Positions 45,964 through 60,877 are shown, counted from the stretch's first letter. The stretch is DNA of 64,000 nucleotides from a virus (IMGVR_UViG_3300045988_101743:19509-83508); one strand, 5' to 3'. Numbers and translations are program-made. Notes: a model not told the origin generated them from the sequence alone.

Positions 45964-45985
45964 CAAGCATAAAATCCTATAAAGT

Positions 45986-47038
45986 ATGAAGAAAATAGTA
46001 AAAGGCAACGATTTCACGCTTCGCATCCCCGTGAGCCGCATGTTCAATGGGGTGGCCGAGCCGTTTCCCTTGCCGGGTTGCACCGACATCGTGGTGAACG
46101 TGGTTAGCAGCTACCGCCGTATCTCCCTGCCTTTCTCCATCGACGTTTCCGACGACCACATCATCAATGCGCGTGTGGAGGGCGACGCTATTCCCCGTGG
46201 CATTTACGCCTTGGAGGTGAAGGGCAAGTTCTTGGGCAACGACTGGCGAAGCAACGAGTATGAGCAGTTTAGCATCGTGGACAATAACGCTTCGGGCGAC
46301 ACGGCCTTCACACCGCAGGAGGGCGAGGACAGCGTGCTCATGAACACGGCGCTTATCATCCTCGCTCCCGATGTGGCGCTTGGTGGTCTGATTTCCGATG
46401 CCGAGAAGGCCATCGCCAAGGTGGACGAGAAGCTGACCGAGGTTGACTCCACGGTTGGCGAGGCCGTGCGCAAGGCCGACACCGCCACCGAGCAAGCCAC
46501 CACGGCGGCAGCCAACGCCAACACGCAGGCCGACCATGCAAAGGCCGTGGCCGAGGCTGGGATGCGCCTGAACCAATCCGTGCAGACGGCTGAGAACATG
46601 CGCATCCAAGCGGAGAAGGAACGTGTGCTGGCCGAAGAAGGGCGCAGCACGGCAGAGTCAAAGCGCCAGGTCGCTGAGAGTGGGCGCAACGATGCCGAGG
46701 TGTCGCGTGTGTCGGCAGAGAGCATGCGCAAGACCGACGAGGCAACACGCATCCGTCAGGAGAAAGAACGCAAGACATCGGAGGAGGAGCGCATAGCCAA
46801 CGAAACCGCCCGTCTTAGAGCAGAGGAGACGAGAGCTGCCTCTGAGCAACAGCGCGTCTTAGACGAGCAGGCTCGAAACGATGCCGAAGCCGAGCGTATC
46901 AAGGCGGCCAAGGAAAACAAGGCGGCCACCGACCAAGCGGTGAAGGACTGCCAGCAGGCTGTGGCCGACGCTAAGGTGGCCGTGGATTACGACCCTGACA
47001 CTTTTTCCATCGTAATAACAACAGGAAAGGAGGAGTGA
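45986..47038 (+). CDS. Tail fibre-associated coiled-coil protein, 350 aa.
   Basis: N-terminal beta-rich region, then about 200 aa of A/E/R-rich heptad-like sequence. Confidence 0.5.
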   Translation: MKKIVKGNDFTLRIPVSRMFNGVAEPFPLPGCTDIVVNVVSSYRRISLPFSIDVSDDHIINARVEGDAIPRGIYALEVKGKFLGNDWRSNEYEQFSIVDNNASGDTAFTPQEGEDSVLMNTALIILAPDVALGGLISDAEKAIAKVDEKLTEVDSTVGEAVRKADTATEQATTAAANANTQADHAKAVAEAGMRLNQSVQTAENMRIQAEKERVLAEEGRSTAESKRQVAESGRNDAEVSRVSAESMRKTDEATRIRQEKERKTSEEERIANETARLRAEETRAASEQQRVLDEQARNDAEAERIKAAKENKAATDQAVKDCQQAVADAKVAVDYDPDTFSIVITTGKEE

Positions 47039-47042
47039 GCAC

Positions 47043-47321
47043 ATGACAGATTCTTTGAACACCGTTAACGTCGTGGCCCTCACCGAGGCAGCCGACCTCA
47101 AGGATGGCGACACCCTGTTGCTTATTCGCGACGATGGGCAGGGCAACAAGACCTGTTACCGCATAGAAGGCCGTTCCTTCCGTGGAAAGAGCGCCTATGA
47201 GGTGGCGAAGGAGAATGGCTATACGGGTACGGAAAGCGACTGGGCGGAACAGGCCGCCAAGGTCGCCAATTTCGACGTTGATTTTGACCCTTCTGATGGG
47301 AGTTTAGTATTCACTAAGTAA
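47043..47321 (+). CDS. Hypothetical protein, 92 aa.
   Basis: ORF. Confidence 0.4.
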   Translation: MTDSLNTVNVVALTEAADLKDGDTLLLIRDDGQGNKTCYRIEGRSFRGKSAYEVAKENGYTGTESDWAEQAAKVANFDVDFDPSDGSLVFTK

Positions 47322-47349
47322 AAACAAAAACAATCAAAACAGATAAGAT

Positions 47350-49680
47350 ATGGCAAAGACACAGACAAGGGTGAAGGTTATCTTCACAAAGGTTGGCACG
47401 GCCTACGATGCCACGAAAGCCTATCGGCTGCACGATTATATCGTGTTGAACGGTGTTACGGTCTACGCATGCAAGAAGGTGGATAAGACCACCATGACTT
47501 GCGTTGGACACCCGTTGACCGATACGGACTACTGGGATAAGTTCATCGACATGGAGGAGTTCAAGGCCGCAGCGGAGAAGGCCACCACGGCGGCCACTAC
47601 GGCGGCCAAGAGCGCAACCGATGCGGCCACGGCGGCCAACATCGCCAAGACCAACGCTGATGCCGCCACGAAGAAGGCCACCGATGCGGTAGGTGCGGCC
47701 ATCACGGCAACCACCAACGCCAACACGGCAACGCAAAAGGCCAACGACGCGGCAACGGCTTCCGAGAAGGTGAACGCCACCATCACCGCCGAGAACGTGT
47801 TGGAGGTGACTGACCGTGAAGGAGTAAAGAAAACACTGGAGCTCCAGTCGCAGGCCGACGCTACGGCAACAGCGCAGCAGGTAACACAGAACGCTTCCGA
47901 TATTGTGAGTCTTCGCAAGCGCATGGACCTCTTTGGCGACGCAATGGTTGGTTTCGCTCGCGTGAGCAGTGACGCTGACCCGAAGCCTATTCCAGAATTT
48001 GTGTATGGAGACCGCAATCTCATCCGTGAGATTGGTAGCCATTTTAAGATGGGAACCGTGAAGCGTGTCGGCAACGAGGCCGTGCTTCAGCACGAGTGCG
48101 CCCCTGGCCGCATAACGCTTGCCTCTAATGGAGATACAGTTGCTGTTGACGGCACAGAGGGCGACTTGCTCATGTACGTCGATACGGATGTTTATCTCCA
48201 AAAGTACAACGCTACGGTGAACGGGAAGGAAATGAGCTGCATGGGTATCGGAGTTGTCCCAAGCTATTGGATGGGCCATGCAGCAAAGAAGTTCGAGCCT
48301 TTCGCTATGTCTCCTTTTTACACAGTCAACGCAAAGCTCGCTGGTGACGAGCGTGAGTGCGCCCACAACGTTATCAGCGACAGTGTTATGGGGTCATATA
48401 AAACTCCAAATGGACTGTTAAAGGAGAATTTTAAGGTAAACGGCGGCGGTTTCGCTTCACAAGGAATTAGTGGAGCCCGATCCATATCTTTAGCCCAAAA
48501 CAAGAATGCGGATAGTAGCACCAACTACCCTTACATGGGTTGCTACTACGAGTTTTACGAGTTGTGGCTTACTATGATGTATGCAGAGTGTGGAACACTC
48601 AATACTAATAACATCTATTGCATGGGTACTGGTTGTACTCGGAGCATGCCTGTTACAGATGCCACATGGAACGATGAGAAGATTGCGGCTAACTCAGGAA
48701 TAAAGATCATTAAAGGCGACGGAAGTGTAGTCGCATACACTCATTTGATGGATAATAAATTTGCGAAGGGTTCTTCCACAAATATGCACTTTTTAGATGG
48801 CCTCGTGGGTTCAGACCACTACTCATTCACCAAGAACGGAGAGGCCATAATGGTTCTTGACGCTATTTCAAAGGGTGACTTGCAAGAAAAGGTTGGAGAT
48901 GCGTCAAACGTATTTTATTTTGACACGAATGGTTCGTTAGTGTGCTCTTCTGACGGTAGCATCAATTTGACAACAGGCGCAGGAATGTCTACAAACACTC
49001 GCTACTACATTGTGCGTGACGTACCAAACTGTCAAGGTATTGCTGAAGGAGTGCTAACAGCCGTCGTGAACTGCTATATAAAGATGAGCTTCGCTGATGG
49101 AGTTACTTTCAAAGGAAATAGCTTGACTGGAGCTTCTGCTATTTGCAAGTTCTCTCATTCTGTTTATCGTGGCAAAAGCTCTCCTCTGGATGGTATGTAC
49201 CAACAGTTGAGTGGTGCTCTATTCGTCTCGAGAAAATCGGGCAACAAGTCATACACCAAGTTTTACTGCGCAAAAAGCTGGAAGGATTTACCTGCGTTGA
49301 CAGATGGCTCTTCCTATACGGATATTTCTAACATAGAGAGCCTTGATGCGCTTAGAGGATTAACCACTTCGGTAGAAATCTCGCCAGGCCAAGGCTGGTC
49401 GAAAAAGGCGAACTATCAGTTTTCGCTTTTCTGTAGCGTTAACTCAGGAGGGGCACAGAATACTAACGAATGTTTTTCTTGCACAAACAATGGTTACGCA
49501 TGGGGTGCAGGAGCGAATGGGGAAGTTGGCGAAGGGAAAGCTTGCGCAAACGCTTTCAATGTCGGATGTTTCGCTAACGGAATTTCAGCATCCGTTCGCT
49601 CTATTGAGAGCAACGATGCGTTCTCTTTCAATTCATATAGCTCTGGCGCATTCTCTGTTCCTCGGCTCGTGTTAAAGTAG
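47350..49680 (+). CDS. Tail fibre protein with Ala/Thr-rich low-complexity repeat segment, 776 aa.
   Basis: AAEKATTAATTAAKSATDAATAANIAKTNADAATKKATDAVGAAITATTNANTATQKANDAATASEKVNA spans 47560-47800, followed by a long beta-rich C-terminal domain. Confidence 0.55.
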   Translation: MAKTQTRVKVIFTKVGTAYDATKAYRLHDYIVLNGVTVYACKKVDKTTMTCVGHPLTDTDYWDKFIDMEEFKAAAEKATTAATTAAKSATDAATAANIAKTNADAATKKATDAVGAAITATTNANTATQKANDAATASEKVNATITAENVLEVTDREGVKKTLELQSQADATATAQQVTQNASDIVSLRKRMDLFGDAMVGFARVSSDADPKPIPEFVYGDRNLIREIGSHFKMGTVKRVGNEAVLQHECAPGRITLASNGDTVAVDGTEGDLLMYVDTDVYLQKYNATVNGKEMSCMGIGVVPSYWMGHAAKKFEPFAMSPFYTVNAKLAGDERECAHNVISDSVMGSYKTPNGLLKENFKVNGGGFASQGISGARSISLAQNKNADSSTNYPYMGCYYEFYELWLTMMYAECGTLNTNNIYCMGTGCTRSMPVTDATWNDEKIAANSGIKIIKGDGSVVAYTHLMDNKFAKGSSTNMHFLDGLVGSDHYSFTKNGEAIMVLDAISKGDLQEKVGDASNVFYFDTNGSLVCSSDGSINLTTGAGMSTNTRYYIVRDVPNCQGIAEGVLTAVVNCYIKMSFADGVTFKGNSLTGASAICKFSHSVYRGKSSPLDGMYQQLSGALFVSRKSGNKSYTKFYCAKSWKDLPALTDGSSYTDISNIESLDALRGLTTSVEISPGQGWSKKANYQFSLFCSVNSGGAQNTNECFSCTNNGYAWGAGANGEVGEGKACANAFNVGCFANGISASVRSIESNDAFSFNSYSSGAFSVPRLVLK

Positions 49681-49700
49681 TTTCAAAAAGATAATAAGTC

Positions 49701-50294
49701 ATGGATAATTCAAGACAGATTTTTACAGAGCGCCAGCCAAAGGTAAGCGTGTGCGCAAGTGGAAGGGCTATGGTTGCCCTCAACGAGGCAGAGGTCAAAA
49801 CCTCCGAGCAAATCGCCGTTGGTATGACAGATGATGGCGAAATGCTTACAGAGGAACGTACCTCGAAACAGTATTCTTATGACGTGTATTGGCTTGATGA
49901 TGTTGGCGTTTCAGGCAACGCATTAAAGGCAGCTAAGAAAGCCGTTGTCGCCGAGATAGAGGCTTACGACACGTCGTCCGCCGTGAACGGATTTGTGCTC
50001 AACGGTGCGGTGGTGTGGCTCGACAAGGCGACAAGAGTCGGACTGATGAACTCCACCAACATCGCCAAGGCTTCGGGTAGCGCAACCACGACGCTGTGGC
50101 TGGGCGGCGAGCGCATGGTGGTGCCGTGCGACAAGGCAATTCAGCTCCTCTCGGCGCTTGAAATGTACGCCCTCGGTTGCTTCAACGTCACGGCATCGCA
50201 CAAGGCTGCCGTGGAGGCGATGACAACCATCGACGAGGTGTTGGCCTACGACTACAAGCAGGGCTACCCCGAGCAGTTAAAGATGGAGGTGTAG
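49701..50294 (+). CDS. Hypothetical protein, 197 aa.
   Basis: ORF. Confidence 0.45.
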   Translation: MDNSRQIFTERQPKVSVCASGRAMVALNEAEVKTSEQIAVGMTDDGEMLTEERTSKQYSYDVYWLDDVGVSGNALKAAKKAVVAEIEAYDTSSAVNGFVLNGAVVWLDKATRVGLMNSTNIAKASGSATTTLWLGGERMVVPCDKAIQLLSALEMYALGCFNVTASHKAAVEAMTTIDEVLAYDYKQGYPEQLKMEV

Positions 50295-50297
50295 GCT

Positions 50298-50771
50298 ATG
50301 ATGGTCGTCTGTCCTATCTTCCTATACGCCGTGACGCTCCTGAACATAGCGCTCTACTCGCGCAACATGGGGCGGCCCACGATGATCAGCGAGATGTATT
50401 ACGGCATGGGGCGTTCGTTGCTGCTGCCCTGCTTGCTGGTGGCGCTCGCCCTGTCGTTCCTGCCTACGATGCTCGCCCTCGGAGGCCAGCAATGGCTCGC
50501 CTTCCTAACTTGCATGGGCTTGGCCTTCGTGGGCGCAGCCCCGGCCTACCTGAGCGAGGGCGAACGGTCTGTGCATAAGGGGGCCGCCATCGTGTCGGCC
50601 TTTGCGGGCACGCTGTGGTGCCTGACGATGGAGCCGTGTGTGGTTGGCGTGGCCGCCCTCATGGCCATCATCGCCACGCTGACCGACCGACGGTGTTGGC
50701 TCTTCTGGTGCGAGATATGTACCATGACCGCCGTGCTCGCTACGGTGGTGATAAAGACCCTCGCCTCATGA
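50298..50771 (+). CDS. Multi-pass membrane protein, 157 aa (holin-family candidate).
   Basis: Four or five hydrophobic helices; upstream of the lysozyme. Confidence 0.4.
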   Translation: MMVVCPIFLYAVTLLNIALYSRNMGRPTMISEMYYGMGRSLLLPCLLVALALSFLPTMLALGGQQWLAFLTCMGLAFVGAAPAYLSEGERSVHKGAAIVSAFAGTLWCLTMEPCVVGVAALMAIIATLTDRRCWLFWCEICTMTAVLATVVIKTLAS

Positions 50772-50989
50772 TGCGCCTCTTCCAACTCAACAGGCGAGAC
50801 TGCATTGGTCTCGCCTGTTGGTTCCTCGCCTCCCTCGCCATCGGTCTATGGTCGCTCCCGCTGATGGTAGGCCGTGAGCTCTACCAATGGCGGCGTTACC
50901 ACCTACCGCGCTTCGAGTGGGAGGACGTGGCGAGATACGCCGTGGTGATCATCGTAGGGTGTGGGGTGCGATTTTTATTGACAAGATAG
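50768..50989 (+). CDS. Small two-TM membrane protein, 73 aa (holin/antiholin candidate).
   Basis: ATGA overlap with the preceding gene. Sequence MMRLFQLNRRDCIGLACWFLASLAIGLWSLPLMVG...AVVIIVGCGV. Confidence 0.35.
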   Translation: MMRLFQLNRRDCIGLACWFLASLAIGLWSLPLMVGRELYQWRRYHLPRFEWEDVARYAVVIIVGCGVRFLLTR

Positions 50990-51049
50990 CGCAATTATGA
51001 AAAATATGTAGTAATTTTACAAAAATGAAACAAAACTAAAAAGCAGGAT

Positions 51050-51433
51050 ATGGAGAATATAGTACAGATACTCACCTTGCTTGTGTCAAGCGGCATTGTC
51101 GGCCAATTGCTTTATTACAACTCACGCAAGCGAAAGGAGGCCGCATCGGCCCAGAAAGACGAGGACGCTAACGCAATGGCCTATGCGGTGGAGTGGAAGA
51201 ACCTCTACACGCATGAGCATGACGAGCACATGGCCGAGCGCACGAAGCTCAACGACAAGATCGACTCCCTGTTTGAGGAACTGAATAAGCAACGTGCCCA
51301 GATCCGTCAGCTCAAGGACGACAAGAGTGCGCTTATGCTCAAAAACCACGAACTGGGATGGTACGAGTGCCGCGTGAATGGCTGCCCCAAGCGCCAGCCT
51401 CCGCGTGACTACGGCAAGGAAGAAACAGACTAA
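51050..51433 (+). CDS. N-terminal TM + coiled-coil protein, 127 aa (i-spanin-like or holin class III-like topology).
   Basis: N-terminal hydrophobic helix ILTLLVSSGIVGQLLYY, then a charged helical region. Confidence 0.4.
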   Translation: MENIVQILTLLVSSGIVGQLLYYNSRKRKEAASAQKDEDANAMAYAVEWKNLYTHEHDEHMAERTKLNDKIDSLFEELNKQRAQIRQLKDDKSALMLKNHELGWYECRVNGCPKRQPPRDYGKEETD

Positions 51434-51444
51434 CATAATTAGGT

Positions 51445-51870
51445 ATGAAAGCAAGTGACATATTGATAGCGAAGATCAAGGAGTTTGAGGGTTACATGTC
51501 TCGGGCCTACCGTGATGCGGTAGGCGTGTGGACTTGTGGCTATGGCCACACAAGAGGAGTGAACGCAAGGACCTCATGCACACAGGCACAGGCCGACGCA
51601 TGGTTGCGCGTAGACCTTGATCCCCTCGAAAAGAGGCTGAACGGCATCAAGGAGATTGACTCACAAGGAAAGTTCGACGCTTGCCTTGATTTTTGCTTCA
51701 ACCTCGGCTTGGGAAACTTCTTGCGCTCGACCCTCCTAAAGACAATCAAGGAAGGCAAAGATGACAAGCGCATCAAGGCCGAGTTCATGCGGTGGGTCTA
51801 CGCAGGAGGCAGAAAGCTCGATGGCCTTGTTAAGAGAAGAGAATGGGAGGCCGAACGGTTCTTTCAGTAA
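51445..51870 (+). CDS. Endolysin, GH24 phage lysozyme family, 141 aa.
   Basis: EGYMSRAYRDAVGVWTCGYGHT matches the T4-lysozyme-type catalytic region (E...D...T, GYGHT). Confidence 0.8.
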   Translation: MKASDILIAKIKEFEGYMSRAYRDAVGVWTCGYGHTRGVNARTSCTQAQADAWLRVDLDPLEKRLNGIKEIDSQGKFDACLDFCFNLGLGNFLRSTLLKTIKEGKDDKRIKAEFMRWVYAGGRKLDGLVKRREWEAERFFQ

Positions 51871-51888
51871 CGTTAAAAGACAATAGCA

Positions 51889-52311
51889 ATGAAAAGATAT
51901 TGGTTACAATGGCTCACGCTCGCTATGCTGGCCGTGATGCTCATGACGCTGACAGGATGCAGGAGCGTGAAATATATCCCTGTCACGGAGTACAGGGACA
52001 GGTACGTAAGCAAGACGGACAGCTTCGTTAAGACGGACAGCGTCTATCTGCACGATAGCGTTACAGTCTTTGCGAAAGGCGACACCGTCTACATTGCCAA
52101 GATACGCTTCAAGGATAGGTTCAAAATCGTCTACCACACCAAGACCGACACCGTAGCCGTGCATGACTCCATACCCTATCCTGTCAAGGTGGAGGTAGAG
52201 AAAAGGCAGTCGGCCATCGACAAGGTGTTCGTATGGCTTGGCAAGATGGCAGGCATTTTGTTTGTCGTGTTCACCGTGCTCATCGTGTATAACCTCGTCA
52301 GAAAGCATTAG
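51889..52311 (+). CDS. Lipoprotein with C-terminal TM helix (unimolecular-spanin-like topology), 140 aa.
   Basis: Signal peptide and lipobox LMTLTGC at the N-terminus; C-terminal hydrophobic helix MAGILFVVFTVLIVYNLV. Lies directly after the endolysin. Confidence 0.5.
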   Translation: MKRYWLQWLTLAMLAVMLMTLTGCRSVKYIPVTEYRDRYVSKTDSFVKTDSVYLHDSVTVFAKGDTVYIAKIRFKDRFKIVYHTKTDTVAVHDSIPYPVKVEVEKRQSAIDKVFVWLGKMAGILFVVFTVLIVYNLVRKH

Positions 52312-52428
52312 ATGAAAGTTCTTTTAGTTTTGATTTAGATAGGTTCAAGTTAGTTATTAGTTAGGTAGTACTTCTTTGGAGAAAGAAGATTGTTGATTCA
52401 GGATTTATCTCAGCCTTGCTTGCCCGTG

Positions 52429-52460
52429 ACGGGTGGGCAAGTTTTTTTTGTTATGCACGA
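52429..52460 (+). terminator. Intrinsic terminator ending the rightward morphogenesis/lysis transcription unit.
   Basis: Hairpin cttgcccgtgacgggtgggcaag followed by T8. Confidence 0.65.
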
Positions 52461-52469
52461 AAAAAGGCG

Positions 52470-52497
52470 ACGCAAGAAGCACCGCCTTTATCAATTG
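52470..52497 (-). terminator. Intrinsic terminator for the leftward RelA/SpoT-domain gene.
   Basis: Hairpin ggcgacgcaagaagcaccgcc, with a minus-strand U-run (plus-strand aaaaaa at 52471-52476). Confidence 0.5.
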
Positions 52498-52510
52498 TCA
52501 GAAACGTATC

Positions 52511-53536
52511 TTACAGCAAAGCACATTTCTCGTCAAACTCATACAGATACTCCAAGAAAGACTTTGTGTCGAGGAAGTAACTTGGGTAAGCCTCCTTTAT
52601 CTCGCGTATCTTGTCAATGGCAACCATGAGTGCCGCTTCATCCTCATTGATGGTTGTTTCTATCTCGCTAAACATCTCGGTTGCTTTCTTGTAGTCAGCA
52701 GAAGGATATACCTTCGCGTGTACTATGTGCCTAACGAAATCAATAGTAAGCACGCAGTAGCCACGTTCATCTTCATCAAGGTCACTATTCACGGTGACGC
52801 GCAAGGCCTTGAACTGCTCTACAAGTTTCAGTTCCTTGTATCTGAAATACGCATCGCACAACTCTTTTGTCGTACAACCATCATACATCGCCAACACAGG
52901 CTTGTTCTCCTCGCGAGAGAATAACGCGCTTACGAGCTTGAAGAACCCTCTCCATTCCTGCGCATTGTCCATATCAGCCTTTAATGTCGTGTTTGATATG
53001 AGGCTTGCTGTCTCTACTGCCATTGCCCAAGAGTGTTGCAGCCGGGTACGGATTTGCAACTCCACGGAAAGGCCGTTGTAAGTTTCGTTCTCAGAACGAT
53101 ACTGGTAAACGTAATGGATGCTTCTGTAACCGCTATCTTTCGGGTGAACTACATAATCATACGACCTCTTTAAGGAGAATTTAGATGGAGTAAACTTGTC
53201 AAGGACTTCCTTCACCGCATCAAGTTCCTCTATGCTTGAAAAGACAAACCTCAATCCGCCAATATCTTGCAAGCCCCCGAGTTTAGTCCGTTTCGCTGCA
53301 TTGTTGCGCAATTTCTCTTCTATTGAAGTCATTCGCTTGATGCGCATTGAGGAAAAGGCATAATGCGTGTTGGTGTCTGAGAAAAGCTGAACGATTTGCT
53401 TATCCAACTCTTGCATGACAAACAGGTGCGTGTCACGCCATTGCTGAACAATCGCCACAGCTTCCTTTCTCAAAAAAGGGTCAGAGCCTATTAGAGCATC
53501 TCCAGCCCTGTCAAGTTTGTGTCTCGTGTAAAGCAT
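52511..53536 (-). CDS. RelA/SpoT-homologue synthetase-domain protein (small alarmone synthetase / toxSAS / CapRel-like), 341 aa.
   Basis: All core RSH synthetase motifs are present in order: SMRIKRMTSIEEKL, DIGGLRFVF, GYRSIHYVY, ELQIRTRLQHSWAMAVE. An extra C-terminal domain of about 140 aa follows. The gene is monocistronic, bracketed by convergent terminators. Confidence 0.8.
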   Translation of the reverse strand: MLYTRHKLDRAGDALIGSDPFLRKEAVAIVQQWRDTHLFVMQELDKQIVQLFSDTNTHYAFSSMRIKRMTSIEEKLRNNAAKRTKLGGLQDIGGLRFVFSSIEELDAVKEVLDKFTPSKFSLKRSYDYVVHPKDSGYRSIHYVYQYRSENETYNGLSVELQIRTRLQHSWAMAVETASLISNTTLKADMDNAQEWRGFFKLVSALFSREENKPVLAMYDGCTTKELCDAYFRYKELKLVEQFKALRVTVNSDLDEDERGYCVLTIDFVRHIVHAKVYPSADYKKATEMFSEIETTINEDEAALMVAIDKIREIKEAYPSYFLDTKSFLEYLYEFDEKCALL

Positions 53537-53718
53537 TGCGTGATTGATTATTTAAGTTGACTTCGATTTCGCTTGCAAAGTTACATTATTATATGCAAGT
53601 TTACAAGTCTTGTGATTATTATTACCGCAATACCAAGTGTTAAACTTCTCAAACGGCCTTTTCAACCAAAAGAAAATTATTACCTTTGCAAATGTCAATC
53701 TGACCAAAGGAGGAACTT

Positions 53719-54225
53719 ATGACAAAGGAAGAGGAAGGCGTTATCCTTTCATTCATGCAAGGAAAGGATGTGAGCGAGGTATTGTCGTTGTTGATGAAGA
53801 ACGGCAACAGGTATTCAAGGCGCATATTGAAGTTTTTTATGTGGTTCTGCAAGTGGGTACCCATAGTCATCATGTGTTTTCACGCTTATGGCATGGTGGA
53901 TTTCAGCACTCATCCGAGAGAAATGTTCCTCCCATACAAGGAGAATACGGCCTGTTACCTGTTCATCTACTTTATGGTGTATGTGCTACCGATAGTCATT
54001 ATCTTGGCCTCCCGTTTCTTTTTCCTATGTTGGAAGTATCGTGTGCCGTTCTTTTATTATTTTGGAGTGAACGCCATCCACATTTGTTTCGGTAGCATCT
54101 TTACGACAAATGAAATGATCATGCCTCACTTTTGCTTGATGGCAATGATAGCGAGCATGTACCTGTATGGCATGGCCGACTGGTTCTTGAAGAACACTGC
54201 GATCGGAAGAAAGTTTTTCTCATAA
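53719..54225 (+). CDS. Polytopic membrane protein, 168 aa.
   Basis: Four hydrophobic helices. Confidence 0.45.
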   Translation: MTKEEEGVILSFMQGKDVSEVLSLLMKNGNRYSRRILKFFMWFCKWVPIVIMCFHAYGMVDFSTHPREMFLPYKENTACYLFIYFMVYVLPIVIILASRFFFLCWKYRVPFFYYFGVNAIHICFGSIFTTNEMIMPHFCLMAMIASMYLYGMADWFLKNTAIGRKFFS

Positions 54226-54232
54226 AAAATGC

Positions 54233-54583
54233 TTGCTGGGTATGAAAAAGATGTTCAACTATTACACCTTGGCCTTGATACTGAAATCGCTCTATGAGAG
54301 CTGCATGAAAGCATGGGAGCAACAACAGAAGGGTGAGAAGGTAACGGCCTGTGGCATGAGCGACGAGGATATTGACGAGTTGTGCCAAGACATCCTCCCC
54401 AACATGCTTAACCCTATGATGAGCACCGAGGAGGTGAAGGAGAAGCTACGTGTGAGCGACGCCACGCTTAACAGGCTTGTGGCCAAGGGCGACCTACCGA
54501 ATGGCGAGTGCAAGAGGCGTGGGCATACGAGGTATTGGAAGAAATGGGACATTCTTCATTTTCTACGAAACAGAAAGAAATGA
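54233..54583 (+). CDS. Helix-turn-helix DNA-binding protein, excisionase/MerR-like, 116 aa.
   Basis: LRVSDATLNRLVAKGDLP...HTRYWKKWDI resembles Xis/AlpA-type HTH. Confidence 0.5.
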   Translation: MLGMKKMFNYYTLALILKSLYESCMKAWEQQQKGEKVTACGMSDEDIDELCQDILPNMLNPMMSTEEVKEKLRVSDATLNRLVAKGDLPNGECKRRGHTRYWKKWDILHFLRNRKK

Positions 54584-54956
54584 CAGAAAGCTAATAGAGT
54601 TTTATCAATGCACCATAACTCGTTGATGATCAAGCGATAACATGATGATAGAAAATTGATAGAACTATGATAGAAAAGAAACAAAGCAAAATAAAGCATT
54701 TGCCTGCCTCGTTTTGAGGTGGGCTTTTTGTTTCAGTAGTAAAGGATTACTTTACAACTGAAATGGCGAACATGTTAACGTAATAGGCTTTTCTTAACAT
54801 GAGCAATACAACGTGTTAGCAAATTCCAGTTTTGTTAACATGATAGAACCGCCTATCACCTTATCTTTCTTATTATCAGCGTGTTACAAAAAGTGTGAGC
54901 GAGTTATACACTTATCCATTATGAAGGACTAACTTTGCCTACGTAACGTTACAATA

Positions 54957-55706
54957 GTGTTAGTTCAAATAAGGTATAACAAGAAAGATTGTATTATCAT
55001 GGATATGACAGATGCAAAAGTAGTAGAGAAGAAAATCTACGAAGATGGAAAGAAAGAGTATGCCAGCAAGGGCTTGGCAGGAACAGCCCTTGGCATTGGT
55101 ATAGGTGGCCTTGCGCTCGCGCTTCTCAACGGAGGTGGTCGAGGCGTATTCGGCTCCCTCGGTGGTGGCAATATGCCCGAGAACGTGAACATCAACGCTT
55201 ATGGAGCTAACGCAAGCTCCAATCAGCCAACCGCCTTACAGGTAATGGAGAAGGAATGCGCTGACGAGGTGAAGCTGCTTACCGATATGTTCGGTTTGAA
55301 GCTCGACACCGCCAACAAGTTCTACGCTATGCGTGAGACAGACATCGCCGAGAAATTCTCTATGTACAAGGGTGGCGTAGAGGCTATCAATGCCGAGAAC
55401 CGCCGTGCTATGCAAGCAGAGTTCGGCCTGTATAAATCTCAGATTGATGCGGACTTCGGCCTCTACAAGAACCAGCGAGACAACTACGACAACTTGCAGG
55501 CCAAGTATTGCGAGCTCGACAAGAAGGTGGCCGTGATGGAAGCCCTCACTCCCTACAAGGAGAAGCTGATGATGGCTTACGTTAACGAGAAGACTTGCGA
55601 CTGTATTCATGGACAGTTGGTGCTCCCCTCTACGCCAGTTGTTTCTGGTTACGGGAGTTACGGTTGTAACTGCAAGGTCGCATCAGCGCCCTCCACAGGA
55701 GCGTAG
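54957..55706 (+). CDS. Hypothetical Gly-rich protein, 249 aa (start may be MDMTDAK at about 54999).
   Basis: ORF. Contains a GIGIGGLALALLNGGGRGVFGSLGGG segment. Confidence 0.45.
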   Translation: MLVQIRYNKKDCIIMDMTDAKVVEKKIYEDGKKEYASKGLAGTALGIGIGGLALALLNGGGRGVFGSLGGGNMPENVNINAYGANASSNQPTALQVMEKECADEVKLLTDMFGLKLDTANKFYAMRETDIAEKFSMYKGGVEAINAENRRAMQAEFGLYKSQIDADFGLYKNQRDNYDNLQAKYCELDKKVAVMEALTPYKEKLMMAYVNEKTCDCIHGQLVLPSTPVVSGYGSYGCNCKVASAPSTGA

Positions 55707-55831
55707 CAGGTCAGCGAAGAAGTCCGTAAGACGGGCCAAGAAGAAATGAGTTGGTGAGGGGCGTTTGCCCTCGTTGGTGGACGCCCTCTCACCTCTCCAT
55801 AAAACATATCACCAACTTAAAGATATTGATC

Positions 55832-56317
55832 ATGATGAATTTCGCAAACAGTCCATTGTTGGATATGGGCACAGGCCAGCAGCCGCAGATGATGGATGCT
55901 GAGTTGCAGAAGATATACGAAGCGCTACAACAAAAGCGTGCGTCCATCAACATGCAAGCGCAGCAATCGCCAACCCCTTTATGGGACGAGATAGACAAGA
56001 TAGAGGACTCGCTCACAGGCGCCCAAAGGAAATACCTATCCCAAAACAAGGAGTATGTCGATAGCTTGCAGTACGTTACAAAGCTCGTGCAGGACGAGGA
56101 GCTACGCATCATACGCCCACGAATAGAGGCGACGCAACAAGGACAGGAGGCATTGAGAAAGCACCTGTCTCTCATGCAGAAATTGCGCAAGGAGGTAGCT
56201 CAGGCAGAGGAGCAGAAAACCGCCTTGCTCAACGACTACATGGAAAACCATAGCGATAAGACATGGCAAGAATATCTCACCATGATACAAGGCAAGAAAG
56301 GAGGAGCTAAGAAATGA
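55832..56317 (+). CDS. Hypothetical protein, about 161 aa (start trimmed to MMNFANS to clear the upstream hairpin).
   Basis: ORF. An imperfect 10-bp hairpin at 55755-55795 precedes it. Confidence 0.45.
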   Translation: MMNFANSPLLDMGTGQQPQMMDAELQKIYEALQQKRASINMQAQQSPTPLWDEIDKIEDSLTGAQRKYLSQNKEYVDSLQYVTKLVQDEELRIIRPRIEATQQGQEALRKHLSLMQKLRKEVAQAEEQKTALLNDYMENHSDKTWQEYLTMIQGKKGGAKK

Positions 56318-56745
56318 AGATAGAGGCATTGAAAGAAAAGCTCATGTCGTCCGTTGACCTTTGGGCAGACGCACAGATTGACGATATGGTAAAAGGGAAC
56401 CCCATGCTCGCCATCCCATCTGTGTATATAAAGAGGGCGGCCCACAACATCATAGCCAAGAACAAGGGCAAATGGAGCGAGCAAATAGACAATGCCGCCC
56501 TGTTCATAGCTGACGAGAACGGAATTGTTGATGCCGGGACAGTGTTCGATGACATGATGCAGATGTTAAAGGCCATCGACGACTACCAGTTTGATATCGG
56601 TATTATCCATGGGCATATCGGAGGTGGCATGATAAGCATCGACCTTCCTGACAACATCGCTATGACGTTATTGTTCGGGAGCAAGAGAAGCATCAATATC
56701 ACGACGGAAGACTTTGCCGAGCTTAGATCGTTGCTTACGGATTGA
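56314..56745 (+). CDS. Hypothetical protein, 143 aa.
   Basis: ORF with ATGA overlap to the previous gene. Confidence 0.45.
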   Translation: MKIEALKEKLMSSVDLWADAQIDDMVKGNPMLAIPSVYIKRAAHNIIAKNKGKWSEQIDNAALFIADENGIVDAGTVFDDMMQMLKAIDDYQFDIGIIHGHIGGGMISIDLPDNIAMTLLFGSKRSINITTEDFAELRSLLTD

Positions 56746-56787
56746 TCGACAAGAAACCATAAACCTAACAACAAATAACCAAAAACC

Positions 56788-57216
56788 ATGAACGAGACGT
56801 TAAACAAAGTAATGGCCTGTGACGACATCAATGCCATCAAGAATGTTGTCGCCATCATGGCCGAGAGCGCAGAGGAAGGCATGGACGGAAAGTCGCGCCT
56901 CTTGATGTTGAAACAGATTCAATCCGAGATTTCCGGTTGCCACTACGACGAGCCGCTTTCAGGACTTCACCTGTCCCTTATCGGAAGGATGTGCTCGAAC
57001 GATGTACCTATGCACTACTGGGTACTTAAAAAGGAGCAGGGCGTGACCGTTTACGACTGGCTTGTGCTTTGGGGAGAAATGGAACGCCGGCACGGAAAGA
57101 AGATACGCCAGTGGTTTCCCCGTATCACGGACGACGAGTATGGCGATAAGCTGTTTGACGAGTGCAAGGCTTTTCTTGAGAGCGGAGGCGATCCGTTCAG
57201 GGACTTAAACCCGTAA
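56788..57216 (+). CDS. Hypothetical protein, 142 aa.
   Basis: ORF. Confidence 0.45.
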   Translation: MNETLNKVMACDDINAIKNVVAIMAESAEEGMDGKSRLLMLKQIQSEISGCHYDEPLSGLHLSLIGRMCSNDVPMHYWVLKKEQGVTVYDWLVLWGEMERRHGKKIRQWFPRITDDEYGDKLFDECKAFLESGGDPFRDLNP

Positions 57217-57221
57217 ACGCA

Positions 57222-57258
57222 AAAGGGGTGGCCGCCTGTTACAGACAACCACCCCTTT
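57222..57258. terminator. Bidirectional terminator between convergent genes.
   Basis: Hairpin aaaggggtgg...ccacccctttg flanked by T/A runs. Confidence 0.5.
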
Positions 57259-57283
57259 GTGTGTTATTTACCAATGTTGCAAA

Positions 57284-57619
57284 CTATCTGTTATCTCCAC
57301 TACCATGTAGCTTTCCTCGCAACTGACGCGAGTGTAGCTTGTCGTAGTTCATCTTGGCGATGTCTCCGAGCTTATATCCGATGTCGTGCGAGAGGGTTGC
57401 GATATACCAAAGAACGTCGCCAACCTCCTTGGCTATCTCTTCTTTGCGCTCTTCCGTAAACACGGAGTTGTTGTCGCGAAGAACCTTCTTCACCTTGTCA
57501 GAAACTTCTCCAGCCTCACCTGTCAGGCCGAGCGTAGGATAGATGATTGGCTGAGGATAGATAGCCGTTTCCATGGCCATTTCCTGATACTCATTGAGAG
57601 TTAATTCTTTCTTTTCCAT
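57284..57619 (-). CDS. MazG-family nucleoside triphosphate pyrophosphohydrolase, 111 aa.
   Basis: LTLNEYQEMAMETAIYP...LGLTGEAGEVSDKVKK...EEIAKEVGDVLWY is the MazG/NTP-PPase EExxE/D helix pattern. Confidence 0.6.
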   Translation of the reverse strand: MEKKELTLNEYQEMAMETAIYPQPIIYPTLGLTGEAGEVSDKVKKVLRDNNSVFTEERKEEIAKEVGDVLWYIATLSHDIGYKLGDIAKMNYDKLHSRQLRGKLHGSGDNR

Positions 57620-57621
57620 TC

Positions 57622-57822
57622 TTATTCTGTTAAAAGTTTGCTTAGCTCATCAAACGTAGGGCTTCCGACGTTGAGAACGAGCCCGTAACTTAGCCTCATG
57701 GCGCTTGTGCCATCTTGCTGCTTAGCGACGCTAATAACGGAACTCGTACTCACAATGTAGTCTATATAACTGACATTCGACTTAAATTCAGGCGTTGCCT
57801 GTATCTTTATAAAGTCACTCAT
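57622..57822 (-). CDS. Hypothetical small protein, about 67 aa (start trimmed to MSDFIKIQ).
   Basis: The C-terminal part of track ORF 57622..58026 is coding-like. The N-terminal part overlaps the 260-aa gene and is rejected. Confidence 0.35.
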   Translation of the reverse strand: MSDFIKIQATPEFKSNVSYIDYIVSTSSVISVAKQQDGTSAMRLSYGLVLNVGSPTFDELSKLLTE

Positions 57823-58597
57823 TGTTCGCCTTCTTATCTTTCTGCATTGAGTGGCGTGCGCATTTGAGCCACGATTGGAGGTTAATCTTACACTCGCTCG
57901 CAAGGTTAGCCTCTCGCCATTCTGCATACTGCTCATAGGTAACTTTGTCCTGGATGATGAGCGCCATTTCCTCGGGGGTAAGAAAATCCGTATCGCCGAA
58001 GTCGCACAATCCTCTACATACGCCACCTATCCAATATGGATCTCGAGAGTCATCAAACAGTTGCTCGTTGATGACATTAGCGAGTCTTTCGCATGCGTCC
58101 CAATAATTCACCACCGCAGCGATACCATTGCCAGGACGGAACTTTTCGTCCGAGTCGTTGACTTGTTGCAAACCGATTTGCATTCCAGGATTCTCCACTT
58201 CGACCTTATACATGGCGAATGACTTAAAGCAAGGTCGGCTATAAAACATGGAGCAAAGCTCATCGAACATAGTTGTTGGGATTTGCTCTTGCGAACAATG
58301 TTCTGTTGAAATGAGCTTGTCGTACAACTCCCAGTCAATGTATTTGCCCTTGCATCGAACGAAATGCTCGTCGGGTTTCAGCACACCAACCAATAAGTAT
58401 TCCGCCGCGACGATACCTTTCAGTCTGCGCCAGTCTTTCGTTGCCTGCGCCTCGTCTCCGATTCCAAAGCAGAACCCTTGGGCGTTTGACTTGTTGCCTT
58501 TGTCCGCTTGAACATCTGCGTTGATCAAGCCTCTGTAACTAAGGAATCTCATTGCTTCTTCCTTAGACATGAAACGGTATATCTTCTTTGTTTTCAT
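57815..58597 (-). CDS. Hypothetical protein, 260 aa.
   Basis: Long coherent ORF. Confidence 0.55.
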   Translation of the reverse strand: MKTKKIYRFMSKEEAMRFLSYRGLINADVQADKGNKSNAQGFCFGIGDEAQATKDWRRLKGIVAAEYLLVGVLKPDEHFVRCKGKYIDWELYDKLISTEHCSQEQIPTTMFDELCSMFYSRPCFKSFAMYKVEVENPGMQIGLQQVNDSDEKFRPGNGIAAVVNYWDACERLANVINEQLFDDSRDPYWIGGVCRGLCDFGDTDFLTPEEMALIIQDKVTYEQYAEWREANLASECKINLQSWLKCARHSMQKDKKANNE

Positions 58598-58747
58598 ACT
58601 ATTTATATCTTTGTTCTCTCATCATGTGTCTGACAACGATGCGGAAAGCACGTAACATACGTGGATTTCCTTGTGTGAGCAATCTTGCAAAATTATCTCC
58701 ATCAGGATTGTTATAAGCATTCAAGAGCTTCTTGGCTTGTCTTAATT

Positions 58748-58945
58748 TCATTTGCGTTCCTCCTTCTCCTCGTACTCTTTCAGCCTGTTTAGCAGGCTTT
58801 TGATTATAATTTGGTCACACTCGTTGAGTCTGCACATTTTCTCGTATCTCTCAAACAAGTCTTCAAACATGCTCTGTCGGCCTAATCTATAATAAGACAC
58901 TCCGACTATAAGCACGTTAATCACAGTAAGTATAATAGCTATCAT
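58748..58945 (-). CDS. Small membrane protein, 65 aa.
   Basis: N-terminal hydrophobic helix MIAIILTVINVLIVGVSYY. Confidence 0.4.
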   Translation of the reverse strand: MIAIILTVINVLIVGVSYYRLGRQSMFEDLFERYEKMCRLNECDQIIIKSLLNRLKEYEEKEERK

Positions 58946-59619
58946 ATTTCTTCTAACGTACTCCTTTTGAAGTTAAACGCATCTACGTCGCTTGTCGAGA
59001 AACCGCACGGCTTAATCTCGGGGCAGAAACCTCGGTAGAGGCAGTTGGGGACACAAGCATTCGCAAGGAATGGTTCAATCTTTACCAACTCTCTAATTGC
59101 CTTCATCCATAGCATACGAGTAGTTCCCTCCGCTTTGCTGCACAAGCGCACACGGGAGATATTGATAATCTCCTGGGCGTTGACGAGCAAGCGCATATTC
59201 ACTGGATCACTCTTCTTCTGCTCGTCACGAGGCTTCATCTGCCCGTTGATGTCGGGACGTGAGGTTGACACGAACGGCTGGGCGTGTACGTGGCGACACA
59301 GGTGTACGCTTGCATAATATGGGATGTCGTAGAAATCGATGGTGAACTGGAGGCAGCGCAATGGTGAGTGCTCGGCCTTGATCATCTTCTGCTTGAACTC
59401 ATTGGATGGCTCATGGTCAACCTCTGGCTTGCGTTGCGTGAAGCGTGCTGCGTTGAGCACATCCTTCCATGAGGTGACACGCCTGACGACAACCCTTGGC
59501 GTTGCAGGCTGCACCTCTTTTACCTTCGACTCACCATCTTGTACGATGATGTTCTGCTGCTTGATGTTCGCTCCTGTGTTGTGGAAATCTCCACCGAAAA
59601 TATAAAATTCGTTTGACAT
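58942..59619 (-). CDS. Possible flavin-dependent thymidylate synthase (ThyX-like), 225 aa.
   Basis: EHSPLRCLQFTIDFYDIPYYASVHLCRHVHAQPFVSTSR loosely aligns with the ThyX HETPFEH...FRHR...S.R region. The RHR motif is degenerate (RHV). Confidence 0.35.
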   Translation of the reverse strand: MSNEFYIFGGDFHNTGANIKQQNIIVQDGESKVKEVQPATPRVVVRRVTSWKDVLNAARFTQRKPEVDHEPSNEFKQKMIKAEHSPLRCLQFTIDFYDIPYYASVHLCRHVHAQPFVSTSRPDINGQMKPRDEQKKSDPVNMRLLVNAQEIINISRVRLCSKAEGTTRMLWMKAIRELVKIEPFLANACVPNCLYRGFCPEIKPCGFSTSDVDAFNFKRSTLEEI

Positions 59620-59646
59620 AATTGAATGTTATGATGTTTTTTGTTG

Positions 59647-59880
59647 TTAGTCGCTGTATCTGTCTGACATGGCACGGAGCCAGCTTTCGACATTATTAAA
59701 GTCCGTCGAGCGGAAACGGAAACGCTTGCCGTGATATGATATTTCGGCCACCCATCTACGGCGTGTCTGGCTTACCCATCCCACGCCTTTCATAAGTCGG
59801 CCTTGCGTTCCACGTCCGCTCTGCACACGCCCCTTGTAGTTGCGCTGCTCCTCTTCGTATATGCACCCTTTTCTTCTCAT
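59647..59880 (-). CDS. Hypothetical small basic protein, 77 aa.
   Basis: ORF. Confidence 0.4.
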   Translation of the reverse strand: MRRKGCIYEEEQRNYKGRVQSGRGTQGRLMKGVGWVSQTRRRWVAEISYHGKRFRFRSTDFNNVESWLRAMSDRYSD

Positions 59881-60236
59881 CTTACTTCTTCGGTTATTGT
59901 TATTGCTCTTGCGAAATAGGCTTCACATTCTATACACTTGCCTCTGCGGTCGTTCTTGTGGTTGCGAAATCGGATTTCGTATTCGCCGGTAAGAAACAAA
60001 TCCATATTTCGCTTTGACGAAAGGGCAAGCTCGATGATTGCCTTGTTGTAAGGAGCGTCTTTTCCTTTTGTGATTTGCGGGAAGCACTTTACGAAAGCCT
60101 CCGTAGCCGCCCTCGCACCTTGGAGGTAAGCGGAATACTGTTGCACTCTCCGAAGGTCAATTGGTGTGTTTGAGTCAGTCGCAACTTGTCTTATGACTTC
60201 AAAATCATGCGCAGCCTTGTTGTTTTGCTTATTCAT
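59877..60236 (-). CDS. Hypothetical protein, 119 aa.
   Basis: ORF. Confidence 0.45.
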   Translation of the reverse strand: MNKQNNKAAHDFEVIRQVATDSNTPIDLRRVQQYSAYLQGARAATEAFVKCFPQITKGKDAPYNKAIIELALSSKRNMDLFLTGEYEIRFRNHKNDRRGKCIECEAYFARAITITEEVR

Positions 60237-60429
60237 GCTTCATCTTTTTTATAAGATATTTGTGTGGTTAGCCTATTCGGCCAACTGCTTGCGCACCTCC
60301 TCATAAAGGCGCTCCAACTGCCATCGGCTGAGCCACACATCGGCAGTACCGACGAACACATGATACTGGCCACCCTCGCGGATTATCCGCACGTCATTTT
60401 TCTTCTCTACCATTTTTTCTGTCTAAAAA

Positions 60430-60726
60430 TTACTTGTACTCTACGGGCTCATCGTCCCAAGTGAGGTCTCGGCCTATCAGCTTCTTGATTGTGCCTTGGG
60501 GCACTGTTATGGAGAATCCTTCACGGTCCTCTTTTGGGACCCAAAGATTGAAGAACCTTCCCCTTTTGGGCTTGCTCTGGAAGATAATCTCTGTTCCTTC
60601 ATTATCAACTGCAAGCCAAACTGTTGTCTTGGTAGTTGATTTTCTTTGGATTTTGTCCAACCATTGAATAGTCTCCATCACAGCGGAGGATGCAGTTGCA
60701 TCATCTAATGGCTTTTTATTACTCAT
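60430..60726 (-). CDS. Hypothetical protein, about 98 aa (start trimmed to MSNKKPLDD).
   Basis: ORF. The upstream part of the track ORF is replaced by a separate small gene in another frame. Confidence 0.4.
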   Translation of the reverse strand: MSNKKPLDDATASSAVMETIQWLDKIQRKSTTKTTVWLAVDNEGTEIIFQSKPKRGRFFNLWVPKEDREGFSITVPQGTIKKLIGRDLTWDDEPVEYK

Positions 60727-60877
60727 TGTCCTGTTTCTTATTAACGTTCCCAAACCGCGCCATTGCAGCCATAAGCTCTTGCGACAAGACGTTCTGTGAT
60801 TGGCCATTCTGCTTCTCTCCTTGCTGCCTTGCCGAGGCAACCTGAAGGAGTATCTGTTCTAATTGCTCTTGTGTCAT
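60719..60877 (-). CDS. Hypothetical small Q-rich protein, 52 aa (MTQEQLEQILLQVASARQQGEKQNGQSQ...).
   Basis: ATG at 60875-60877. The reading is helical and low-complexity. It is below the track cutoff. Confidence 0.3.
   Translation of the reverse strand: MTQEQLEQILLQVASARQQGEKQNGQSQNVLSQELMAAMARFGNVNKKQDNE

Follow-up and report, generated by a model that had tools for sequence, protein, structure and literature searches.

A candidate fused CapRel-type toxSAS toxin–antitoxin on an exchangeable cassette in a prophage of gut Prevotellaceae

We analysed a stretch of 64,000 nucleotides of viral DNA (IMGVR_UViG_3300045988_101743:19509-83508, hereafter the window, with positions counted from its first letter) and focused on a gene for a protein of 341 amino acids (aa) located just downstream of the lysis genes. 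Our results indicate that this protein is most likely a fused CapRel-type toxSAS, that is, a toxin and its antitoxin in a single polypeptide, functioning essentially like CapRel of Salmonella phage SJ46 (CapRel-SJ46). This reading is drawn from the homology with CapRel-SJ46 along the full length, from the match obtained with the C-terminal region alone, and from the conservation of the catalytic and autoinhibitory residues. The gene is part of a single-gene cassette that only some of a set of closely related phages possess, and its carrier is a siphovirus-like, temperate phage whose host is a Prevotellaceae bacterium of the gut (Hallella sp.).

The reading frame 52511..53536 (-) is the sole long open reading frame (ORF) within positions 52429-53700, the span that the initial annotation of the window had assigned to a stand-alone RelA/SpoT synthetase-domain gene. 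This span comprises the ORF and both intergenic flanks and is nearly the same as the cassette that we delimited by comparison with empty sites. The full set of (p)ppGpp-synthetase motifs is readable in the translation: R65-I-K67-R-M-T-S71 ... E73-E-K75 (motif 1), D91-I-G-G-L-R96 (motif 2), G136-Y137-R-S-I-H141 (motif 3) and E159-L-Q-I-R-T-R-L-Q-H168-S-W-A171 (motif 4). These provide the key residues of the toxSYNTH core, namely R65/R96 (stacking on the adenine of ATP), D91, the G-loop tyrosine Y137, E159/Q161/R163 and H168/W170. The RelA_SpoT profile of Pfam (PF04607) matches residues 65-172 with an E value of 2.4e-19 and 70 bits, compared to a gathering score of 27, and no domain besides RelA_SpoT was found by Pfam in the 341-aa protein. 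The exact protein is already deposited as RefSeq WP_337569306.1 (Hallella sp., family Prevotellaceae), where it is named just "RelA/SpoT domain-containing protein".

Sequence searches consistently returned CapRel-SJ46 as the best relative of known structure. With phmmer, the best match in the PDB was CapRel of phage SJ46 (7ZTB, 9ERV; E 1e-29, residues 3-331 versus 15-366), and a profile built from 55 homologues matched 7ZTB at E 1.6e-45 and 159 bits, over residues 1-335 versus 12-367. The runners-up of the profile search, the small alarmone synthetases SAS1, RelQ and RelP, scored about 1e-17 (best 1.6e-17; SAS1 67 bits) and were matched in the synthetase domain only. Likewise, SJ46 came first in a tblastn search against GenBank phages, with 26% identity at 96% coverage. 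The structures of FaRel2 and Tas1 appeared neither among the sequence matches (E<=1) nor among the 50 Foldseek matches listed.

Structure prediction led to the same relative. The AlphaFold2 model built on the alignment reached a mean predicted local distance difference test (pLDDT) of 88.9 and a predicted TM score (pTM) of 0.88, and Foldseek placed 7ZTB and 9ERV on top of the PDB matches (E 3e-19, 358 columns, TM score 0.63), followed by SAS enzymes at about 1e-9 over about 190 columns. The modelled toxSYNTH domain has a five-stranded core, and the N-terminal part (residues 1-58) aligns to residues 13-76 of CapRel-SJ46. We also modelled the C-terminal 141 aa alone (pLDDT 77). This model had two significant matches in the PDB, 7ZTB (1.8e-4, TM score 0.62, root-mean-square deviation 4.4 A) and 9ERV, while all its non-CapRel matches had E > 0.1. 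For the protein, the initial annotation is thus borne out: the 341-aa length, the complete motif set and the extra C-terminal domain of about 140 aa (residues 201-341, folded in the AlphaFold2 model) are all present, and its cautious comparison to CapRel agrees with the full-length sequence and fold match and with the functional residues kept. Two of the checks that it had proposed, the search with the RelA_SpoT hidden Markov model and the structure prediction of the C-terminal domain, returned a hit far above chance and the CapRel antitoxin/sensor fold, respectively.

We considered whether the gene might belong to other RelA/SpoT-related classes. A housekeeping small alarmone synthetase (RelQ/YjbM, RelP/YwaC) was rejected, since the protein stays below the equivalog threshold of NF053588 GTPPhKinYjbM (53.8 bits versus a cut-off of 320) and has an additional 140-aa C-terminal domain. 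A long RelA/SpoT homologue (RelA/SpoT/Rel) was also rejected, as TIGR00691 matches the synthetase region only (29.8 versus a cut-off of 499) and no HD, TGS or ACT/RIS domain was found by Pfam. More generally, NCBIfam offered no specific model, only GTP diphosphokinase matches far below threshold. The protein does match two existing clusters over its full length. One is PDC-S33, which PADLOC independently files as a single-gene 'phage defence candidate' (PADLOC-DB v2.0.0; E 1.1e-89, with residues 3-334 aligned to positions 8-341 of the 349 in the profile); the other is PHROG 4773 (E 3.4e-71), which is listed as of 'unknown function'. Our literature search for 'PDC-S33' returned no papers.

In CapRel-SJ46, the toxSYNTH domain is followed by three linker helices (alpha7-9) and a pseudo-zinc-finger domain (pseudo-ZFD), and a helical extension forms the C-terminus. 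The pseudo-ZFD lacks zinc-binding cysteines and is an antiparallel sheet of three strands, the second and third of which are separated by a helix (PMC9712102). The same order of elements is found in our model. Here the pseudo-ZFD has strands at residues 259-266, 271-278 and 300-307, with a helix (279-295) between strands two and three, and its residues 251-308 have neither CxxC nor HxxH pairs, C261 being their only cysteine. A real metal site in this 'pseudo' zinc finger was considered and rejected: C227, C261 and C338 are invariant or nearly so in the close clade, but occur in only 24, 17 and 62 of 82 wider homologues, respectively. The C-terminal anchor aligns to residues 345-373 of CapRel, and a short helix (318-321) sits between its helices 310-316 and 325-340. 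The C-terminal region (residues 201-341, 52514-52936 on the minus strand) is acidic, with an isoelectric point (pI) of 4.7, falling to 4.3 in the pseudo-ZFD, whereas the equivalent region of CapRel-SJ46 is basic (pI 9.2-9.6).

We then mapped the residues that had been mutated in CapRel (PMC9712102) onto the window protein. The catalytic residues R79, R116 and Y155 correspond to R65, R96 and Y137, the switch A351-Y352-P-N-Y355-F corresponds to A316-Y317-P-S-Y320-F321, and among the scaffold residues A341 corresponds to A306 and V338/L339 to L303/M304. To assess conservation, we aligned the query, SJ46 and 80 homologues extracted from species-representative genomes (82 sequences in total). R65, K67, D91, G94, R96, G136, Y137, H141, E159, Q161, R163, H168 and W170 are invariant (82/82), and so is the A-Y-P-x-Y-F stretch. 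On the other hand, mean identity to the query is highest in the toxSYNTH domain (65%), lower in anchor-1 (50%) and lowest in the pseudo-ZFD (44%), with an entropy of 1.88 in the latter versus 1.08 in the core. In CapRel the sensor region is likewise the most variable part, and anchor-1 of CapRel-SJ46 contacts its trigger Gp54 (PMC11578894).

In CapRel the YXXY motif lies in the hinge between two C-terminal helices and, in the closed state, plugs the ATP site between R79 and R116 (PMC9712102). The corresponding Y317-P-S-Y320 of the window protein, aligned to Y352-P-N-Y355 of CapRel-SJ46, was modelled with a pLDDT of about 88 in the full-length protein (block 311-320) and below 50 when the C-terminal region was modelled alone. 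Since the stretch is confident only beside toxSYNTH, this pattern fits a docking switch ordered by the toxin domain, and we infer that the segment may become ordered through docking. Moreover, the AlphaFold2 model deviates from the open crystal form by a global root-mean-square deviation of 10.7 A at a TM score of 0.63. Taken with the confidence pattern of the YXXY segment, this large deviation hints, indirectly, that the model may represent the closed form.

Our observations comprise the homology, the fold, the conserved functional residues, the single-gene structure of the cassette, its carriage by a prophage, and the distribution and mobility of the family; expression in lysogeny, autoinhibition, tRNA as substrate, the trigger and the protective phenotype are proposed by homology with CapRel-SJ46. 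A promoter of its own would drive transcription of the gene, presumably in the lysogen and in the direction opposite to the late genes. At rest, the protein would be closed: its C-terminal pseudo-ZFD would be folded over the pyrophosphokinase domain at the N-terminus, and the Y317-P-S-Y320 turn would block the ATP (pyrophosphate donor) site flanked by R65 and R96. On infection by another phage, one of the phage's proteins could bind to the variable pseudo-ZFD/anchor surface and keep the toxin–antitoxin open; in CapRel-SJ46 the triggers are the major capsid protein or Gp54 (PMC11578894). The opened enzyme would move pyrophosphate from ATP onto the 3' CCA end of tRNAs, and the resulting halt of translation would lead to abortive infection, thus protecting the lysogen population and the resident prophage.

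The gene lies on an exchangeable cassette. Using the 140-aa left neighbour as a query in IMG/VR, we retrieved seven related phages, among them one with the gene (L010) and four sister phages without it (L011-L014). Altogether, the site is occupied in the window, in L001-L008 and in L010, and is empty and intact in L011-L014. The gap between the genes of the 140-aa and 168-aa neighbours measures 1409-1410 bp in occupied and 222-229 bp in empty sites. Compared to the empty sites, the occupied ones diverge from about 52392, where the terminator is a variant, and are wholly novel from about 52450 to 53676. At an empty site, the lysis-operon terminator is followed about 45 bp later by the TACCTTTGC box of the 168-aa gene, a box that is kept in occupied and empty sites alike. 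A single ORF is encoded by the cassette, equipped with a promoter-like box and a terminator of its own, and there is no co-transcribed small ORF or partner gene. We found no direct repeats flanking it, and its acquisition therefore looks like a replacement via flanking homology, not a transposition. Between all carriers, L010 among them, the DNA of the cassette is 99.6-100% identical, while the neighbouring genes are 72-98% identical, and its G+C content is 43.8% versus 51.3% in the lysis genes. By this pattern of identity and G+C, the cassette looks like a recently exchanged moron.

Regarding the signals, the CapRel gene ends in a hairpin that begins 22 nt past the stop codon (fold -16.8 kcal/mol, z -1.8) and is found only in cassette-bearing phages. 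It is convergent with the lysis-operon hairpin at 52415-52441 (-17.9 kcal/mol, with a modest z of -1.7), of which a homologous hairpin exists at the empty sites. On the 5' side there is a divergent intergenic region of 182 bp with two TAnnTTTGC boxes located 30-40 nt before the start codons. TAnnTTTG is the Bacteroides -7 promoter consensus, and a pattern search counted 17 TAnnTTTGC boxes in the window versus 9.3 expected. The box of the CapRel gene, TAACTTTGC, lies inside the cassette and is absent from the empty sites. The predicted transcript would start about 7 nt downstream of TAACTTTG (53576) and end at the hairpin at 52463-52489.

These comparisons also bear on what the initial annotation had said of the location. 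The gene does run antisense to its flanking neighbours, it does sit beside the lysis cassette (the left neighbours being the endolysin and the 140-aa lipobox protein), and its description as an inserted moron agrees with the presence/absence polymorphism, the empty site, the promoter-like box and terminator of its own, the lower G+C and the contrast in identity with the flanks. The claim that convergent terminators of its own bracket the gene was only half right: two convergent hairpins are present at the 3' end, whereas the 5' end has a divergent promoter region instead.

The family is widespread, with 910 homologues at E < 1e-5. Among species-representative genomes, most members are from Bacteroidota (Prevotellaceae, Bacteroidaceae, Paludibacteraceae, Flavobacterium, Pedobacter and others), with an internal identity of the clade of about 35-60%; those in Proteobacteria, Planctomycetota and others are more distant (about 31-34% identical). 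In these genomes, no diverged allele was found at the locus of the window phage: none of the 80 homologue loci has the neighbouring genes of this phage, suggesting that the family moves between contexts without diversifying in place. The sampled cellular neighbourhoods include a CTn-type (conjugative transposon) integrase with RteC in Phocaeicola sartorii, RhuM with an AAA_15/AAA_21 ATPase in Segatella copri, and KilA-N with DUF1016, and are like those of mobile elements or defence islands. Searched by itself, the C-terminal domain matches 271 cluster representatives, of which most are 330-390 aa long with the domain at about 200-340, that is, with the fused architecture; the short proteins among these matches may be fragments or split antitoxins. 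According to the literature, the CapRel subfamily is mostly fused, is found in prophages, has representatives in Bacteroidetes, and is commoner in phages than in bacteria.

Several points weigh against a protein working just like CapRel-SJ46. The protein shares only about 26% identity with those fused CapRels that have been characterised. Given the acidic sensor, the trigger surface, and hence the trigger, probably differs from that of CapRel-SJ46. The closed, plugged state is suggested by confidence patterns and not by coordinates, and the promoter and terminator of the gene are predicted at the level of consensus. Finally, among the closest relatives the pseudo-ZFD is hardly more divergent than the remainder of the protein (86% versus 85% identity in the homologue P0002).

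As an alternative, a CapRel-fold protein could respond to something else than a structural protein of an incoming phage, for instance to a phage protein outside the capsid, to stress of the host or to induction of the resident phage itself, and could serve mainly prophage maintenance, control of lysis timing or competition between related phages. We regard this as unlikely, though better placed than the other alternatives. It would suit a sensor whose charge is unlike that of CapRel-SJ46, and CapRel-SJ46 itself senses two unrelated proteins (PMC11578894). The cassette lies directly after the lysis genes, and its near-identical DNA across a swarm of related phages could reflect selection in phage–phage competition. 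However, no partner or regulator travels with the cassette, and homologues are found in many unrelated mobile or defence contexts away from lysis genes. Moreover, with toxin and antitoxin in one polypeptide, the protein should not be able to act as a classical post-segregational addiction module.

Less probable still is an alternative that the initial annotation had named as equally possible, a phage alarmone synthetase, here producing (p)ppGpp or (pp)pApp, which would reprogram or shut down the host in infection or lysogeny instead of acting on tRNA in defence. The homology to the tRNA-modifying CapRel spans the full length and extends beyond the core that is common, in fold and motifs, to the true alarmone synthetases. 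It is true that the toxSAS FaRel, Tas1 and GRel/Pag1B of PANGU do produce alarmones. Nevertheless, neutralisation by a YXXY at the donor site is reported to go with tRNA-targeting toxSAS, while alarmone-making toxSAS are neutralised at the acceptor site (PMC11782079), and the plug is invariant here. The GTP-diphosphokinase models of NCBIfam reach 54 bits compared to a cut-off of 320. The position of the gene, antisense to the late operon, is ill-suited to a takeover of the host, and the existence of four sister phages without the cassette shows that the gene is dispensable for the phage.

A decaying or inactive RelA/SpoT-like remnant, an idea to which the generic name in public records and the 'unknown function' of PHROG 4773 might lend themselves, is hardly credible, given the intact reading frame, the confident fold prediction, the occurrence of the exact protein in 171 index blocks, the 910 homologues and, above all, the invariance of catalytic and autoinhibitory residues in 82 sequences, which effectively refutes it.

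Considering all the above results, we favour the fused CapRel-type toxSAS. As a tentative extension, which we hold to be possible but rather doubtful, the Bacteroidota clade represented by this protein (PDC-S33 in PADLOC) may combine the CapRel engine and its YXXY lock with an acidic sensor for a class of triggers different from capsid proteins and Gp54, and the 1.2-kb cassette may be spreading by recombination through a swarm of prophages of gut Prevotellaceae. The positions of the gene, of its parts and of its surroundings are collected in Table 1.

Table 1. Positions in the window of the candidate CapRel-type gene, its predicted domains and signals, and surrounding phage features
Feature	Position	Strand	Basis or remark
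Complete ORF, probable fused CapRel-type toxSAS toxin–antitoxin	52511..53536	-	341 aa + stop, ATG start
N-terminal helical pair before the catalytic core	residues 1-58, 53363..53536	-	AlphaFold2 helices 5-16, 20-54, pLDDT >90
toxSYNTH (nucleotide pyrophosphokinase) core	residues 59-200, 52937..53362	-	Pfam match 65-172
Three linker helices, equivalent to CapRel anchor-1 (alpha7-9)	residues 201-250, 52787..52936	-	AlphaFold2 helices 192-209, 223-235, 238-244
Pseudo-zinc-finger-like sensor/antitoxin domain (beta-beta-alpha-beta)	residues 251-308, 52613..52786	-	AlphaFold2 model
C-terminal helical anchor with switch	residues 309-341, 52514..52612	-	AlphaFold2 helices 310-316, 318-321, 325-340
YXXY autoinhibition motif Y317-P-S-Y320 inside A-Y-P-S/N-Y-F	codons 52577..52588	-	reverse complement TAC CCA AGT TAC
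Outer limits of exchangeable cassette	52392..53676	.	window and L010 (occupied) aligned with L011-L014 (empty)
Lysis-operon terminator-like hairpin and T8 run	about 52415..52450	+	12-bp stem, 7 GC pairs (terminator scan)
Intrinsic-terminator-like hairpin of the CapRel gene	about 52460..52489	-	11-bp stem AAAGGCGGUGC/GCGUCGCCUUU, then U run
Promoter-like Bacteroidetes -7 box TAACTTTGC	53575..53583	-	38 nt before the start codon (ATG) of the CapRel gene
Promoter-like box TACCTTTGC of the divergent 168-aa gene	53681..53689	+	marks right cassette boundary
Endolysin	51445-51870	+	PHROG 7 2.2e-47; Pfam Phage_lysozyme
140-aa protein, N-terminal lipobox (LTGC) and C-terminal transmembrane helix	51889-52311	+	ends the lysis cassette with the endolysin
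168-aa protein with multiple transmembrane stretches	53719-54225	+	membrane-spanning stretches judged by eye
116-aa helix-turn-helix (HTH)/excisionase-like protein, right neighbour	within 53719..54583	+	HTH_17
Tyrosine integrase	3128-4063		
SPP1-type portal	21052-22851		
Large terminase	22749-24476		

Among the neighbours of the cassette, the 140-aa protein appears spanin-like, by eye only. The 168-aa membrane protein had no match in PHROGs or PADLOC and has two alleles (about 62% identical), whose distribution among the phages is independent of the CapRel cassette. We considered this divergently encoded protein as a partner of CapRel and discarded it, because it is present at the empty sites too; likewise, the 116-aa HTH protein is present in phages without the cassette. 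At 57284-57619 (-), about 4 kb away from CapRel, there is a gene for a MazG-like nucleotide pyrophosphohydrolase, recognised by Pfam MazG in L004, where the locus is identical. As a nucleotide-hydrolase partner or antidote it was also dismissed, being found in the cassette-less L012 and having no PADLOC match, and is probably unrelated. The prophage, besides its presumed tRNA-targeting toxin, has a tRNA-Met (CAT) gene at 24544-24617 (+), between the terminase gene and the head genes.

The presence of an integrase, a portal, a terminase and an endolysin identifies the carrier as a temperate phage, and tail-fibre-like proteins are also encoded in the window. The exact protein is found on many human-gut metagenome contigs of 70-140 kb, and its 171 index blocks are from metagenome and genome assemblies. 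When positions 45000-64000 were compared by megablast to GenBank phages, the only match was one of 172 bp to an unannotated faecal phage contig, and no named relative was returned. Two giant ORFs occupy the tail region, 30612-37826 (+) with 2404 aa and 38398-45963 (+) with 2521 aa. Inside the second one, at about 41 kb, the G+C content rises from about 0.46 to 0.56-0.61, suggesting a mosaic or exchanged C-terminal part.

What looks like a second defence-like locus is located near the integrase, at 6140-9213 (-). It encodes a 421-aa reverse transcriptase matching PADLOC RT_UG27 (DRT class) along its full length (E 3.5e-217) and, two genes away, a 333-aa protein matching the reverse transcriptase-associated RTas337 (E 4.9e-105), with an unassigned 163-aa ORF (7479-7970) in between. 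Additional cargo was seen in sister phages. In L003, a 461-aa reverse transcriptase (RVT_1; 14161-15546) lies beside a DUF4376 tail-fibre gene, with nothing at this place in the other relatives, and could belong to a diversity-generating retroelement acting on the tail fibre. L005, which has the same CapRel cassette, encodes at 3643-4377 a metallo-beta-lactamase-fold protein of the Anti-Pycsar Apyc1 family (PF23023) next to an AAA_23 ATPase, and so combines defence and counter-defence cargo in one phage. In L006, positions 1-9000 hold Bacteroidota-type chromosomal genes (CarbopepD_reg_2, DUF3575, patatin, 5-FTHF cyclo-ligase) about 1-2 kb past the 168-aa neighbour; either the cassette would be close to the prophage–host junction in this case, or the assembly is chimeric.

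The CapRel family is already known, and the locus described here adds a divergent fused CapRel without changing the general picture of such systems. Modestly new are the explicit link of PDC-S33 and PHROG 4773 to CapRel, the acidic sensor domain, and the natural plus/minus polymorphism of the cassette in phages of gut Prevotellaceae. The functionally characterised CapRel systems belong to enterobacteria and their phages; here, the same single-protein sensor-effector design would be found in a prophage of the Prevotellaceae, human gut bacteria that are dominant and hard to work with. Sister phages differing by a clean 1.2-kb swap offer a ready comparison for immunity conferred by prophages in the gut and, if our reading is true, a natural isogenic plus/minus system. 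Additionally, the acidic sensor could widen the known range of targets of pseudo-zinc-finger sensors.

Like CapRel-SJ46 (7ZTB, 9ERV; Zhang et al. 2022, PMC9712102; 2024, PMC11578894), the candidate is encoded by a single ORF of about 340-370 aa in a temperate phage. In both proteins, the ATP-stacking arginines and the G-loop tyrosine of the toxSYNTH domain are the same, three linker helices precede a pseudo-ZFD of beta-beta-alpha-beta topology, the C-terminal anchor contains AYPxYF, and the sensor is the most variable part. The candidate has 32 residues fewer than CapRel-SJ46, its loops being shorter within the pseudo-ZFD and ahead of beta2, and its C-terminal domain is acidic instead of basic. 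The host phylum is Bacteroidota here and Proteobacteria there, and the gene follows the lysis genes of a siphovirus-like prophage, whereas CapRel-SJ46 is carried by a P1-like plasmid prophage. As for PDC-S33 and PHROG 4773, the window protein belongs to both clusters by full-length match; these are unnamed bioinformatic bins, and their connection with CapRel is drawn here via the homology to PDB entries.

The bicistronic toxSAS (PhRel-ATphRel of mycobacteriophage Phrann gp29/gp30, the split CapRel-ATcapRel, and FaRel2-ATfaRel2; Jimmy et al. 2020, PMC7229694; PMC11782079) are alike in their toxSYNTH toxin, in a pseudo-ZFD-type antitoxin with the donor-site YXXY plug, in prophage carriage and in a role in superinfection exclusion, but their toxin and antitoxin are encoded by separate genes and not in one polypeptide. 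The housekeeping SAS (RelQ/SAS1/YjbM, RelP/SAS2/YwaC) share the fold and motifs of the catalytic core (E 1e-13 to 1e-17 over residues of about 52-173), but are GDP/GTP enzymes of about 200 aa that lack a C-terminal antitoxin/sensor domain. Lastly, PANGU type I (Pag1A with the GRel toxSAS Pag1B; bioRxiv 10.64898/2026.04.06.716658) resembles our candidate in combining toxSYNTH with an acidic C-terminal domain in an anti-phage effector. PANGU, however, is bicistronic, depends on an obligatory nucleoid-associated protein as activator, makes pppGpp, and has a C-terminal domain that is no internal antitoxin, whereas the cassette of the window has no partner gene and the C-terminal domain of its protein is homologous to the CapRel antitoxin and contains the YXXY motif.

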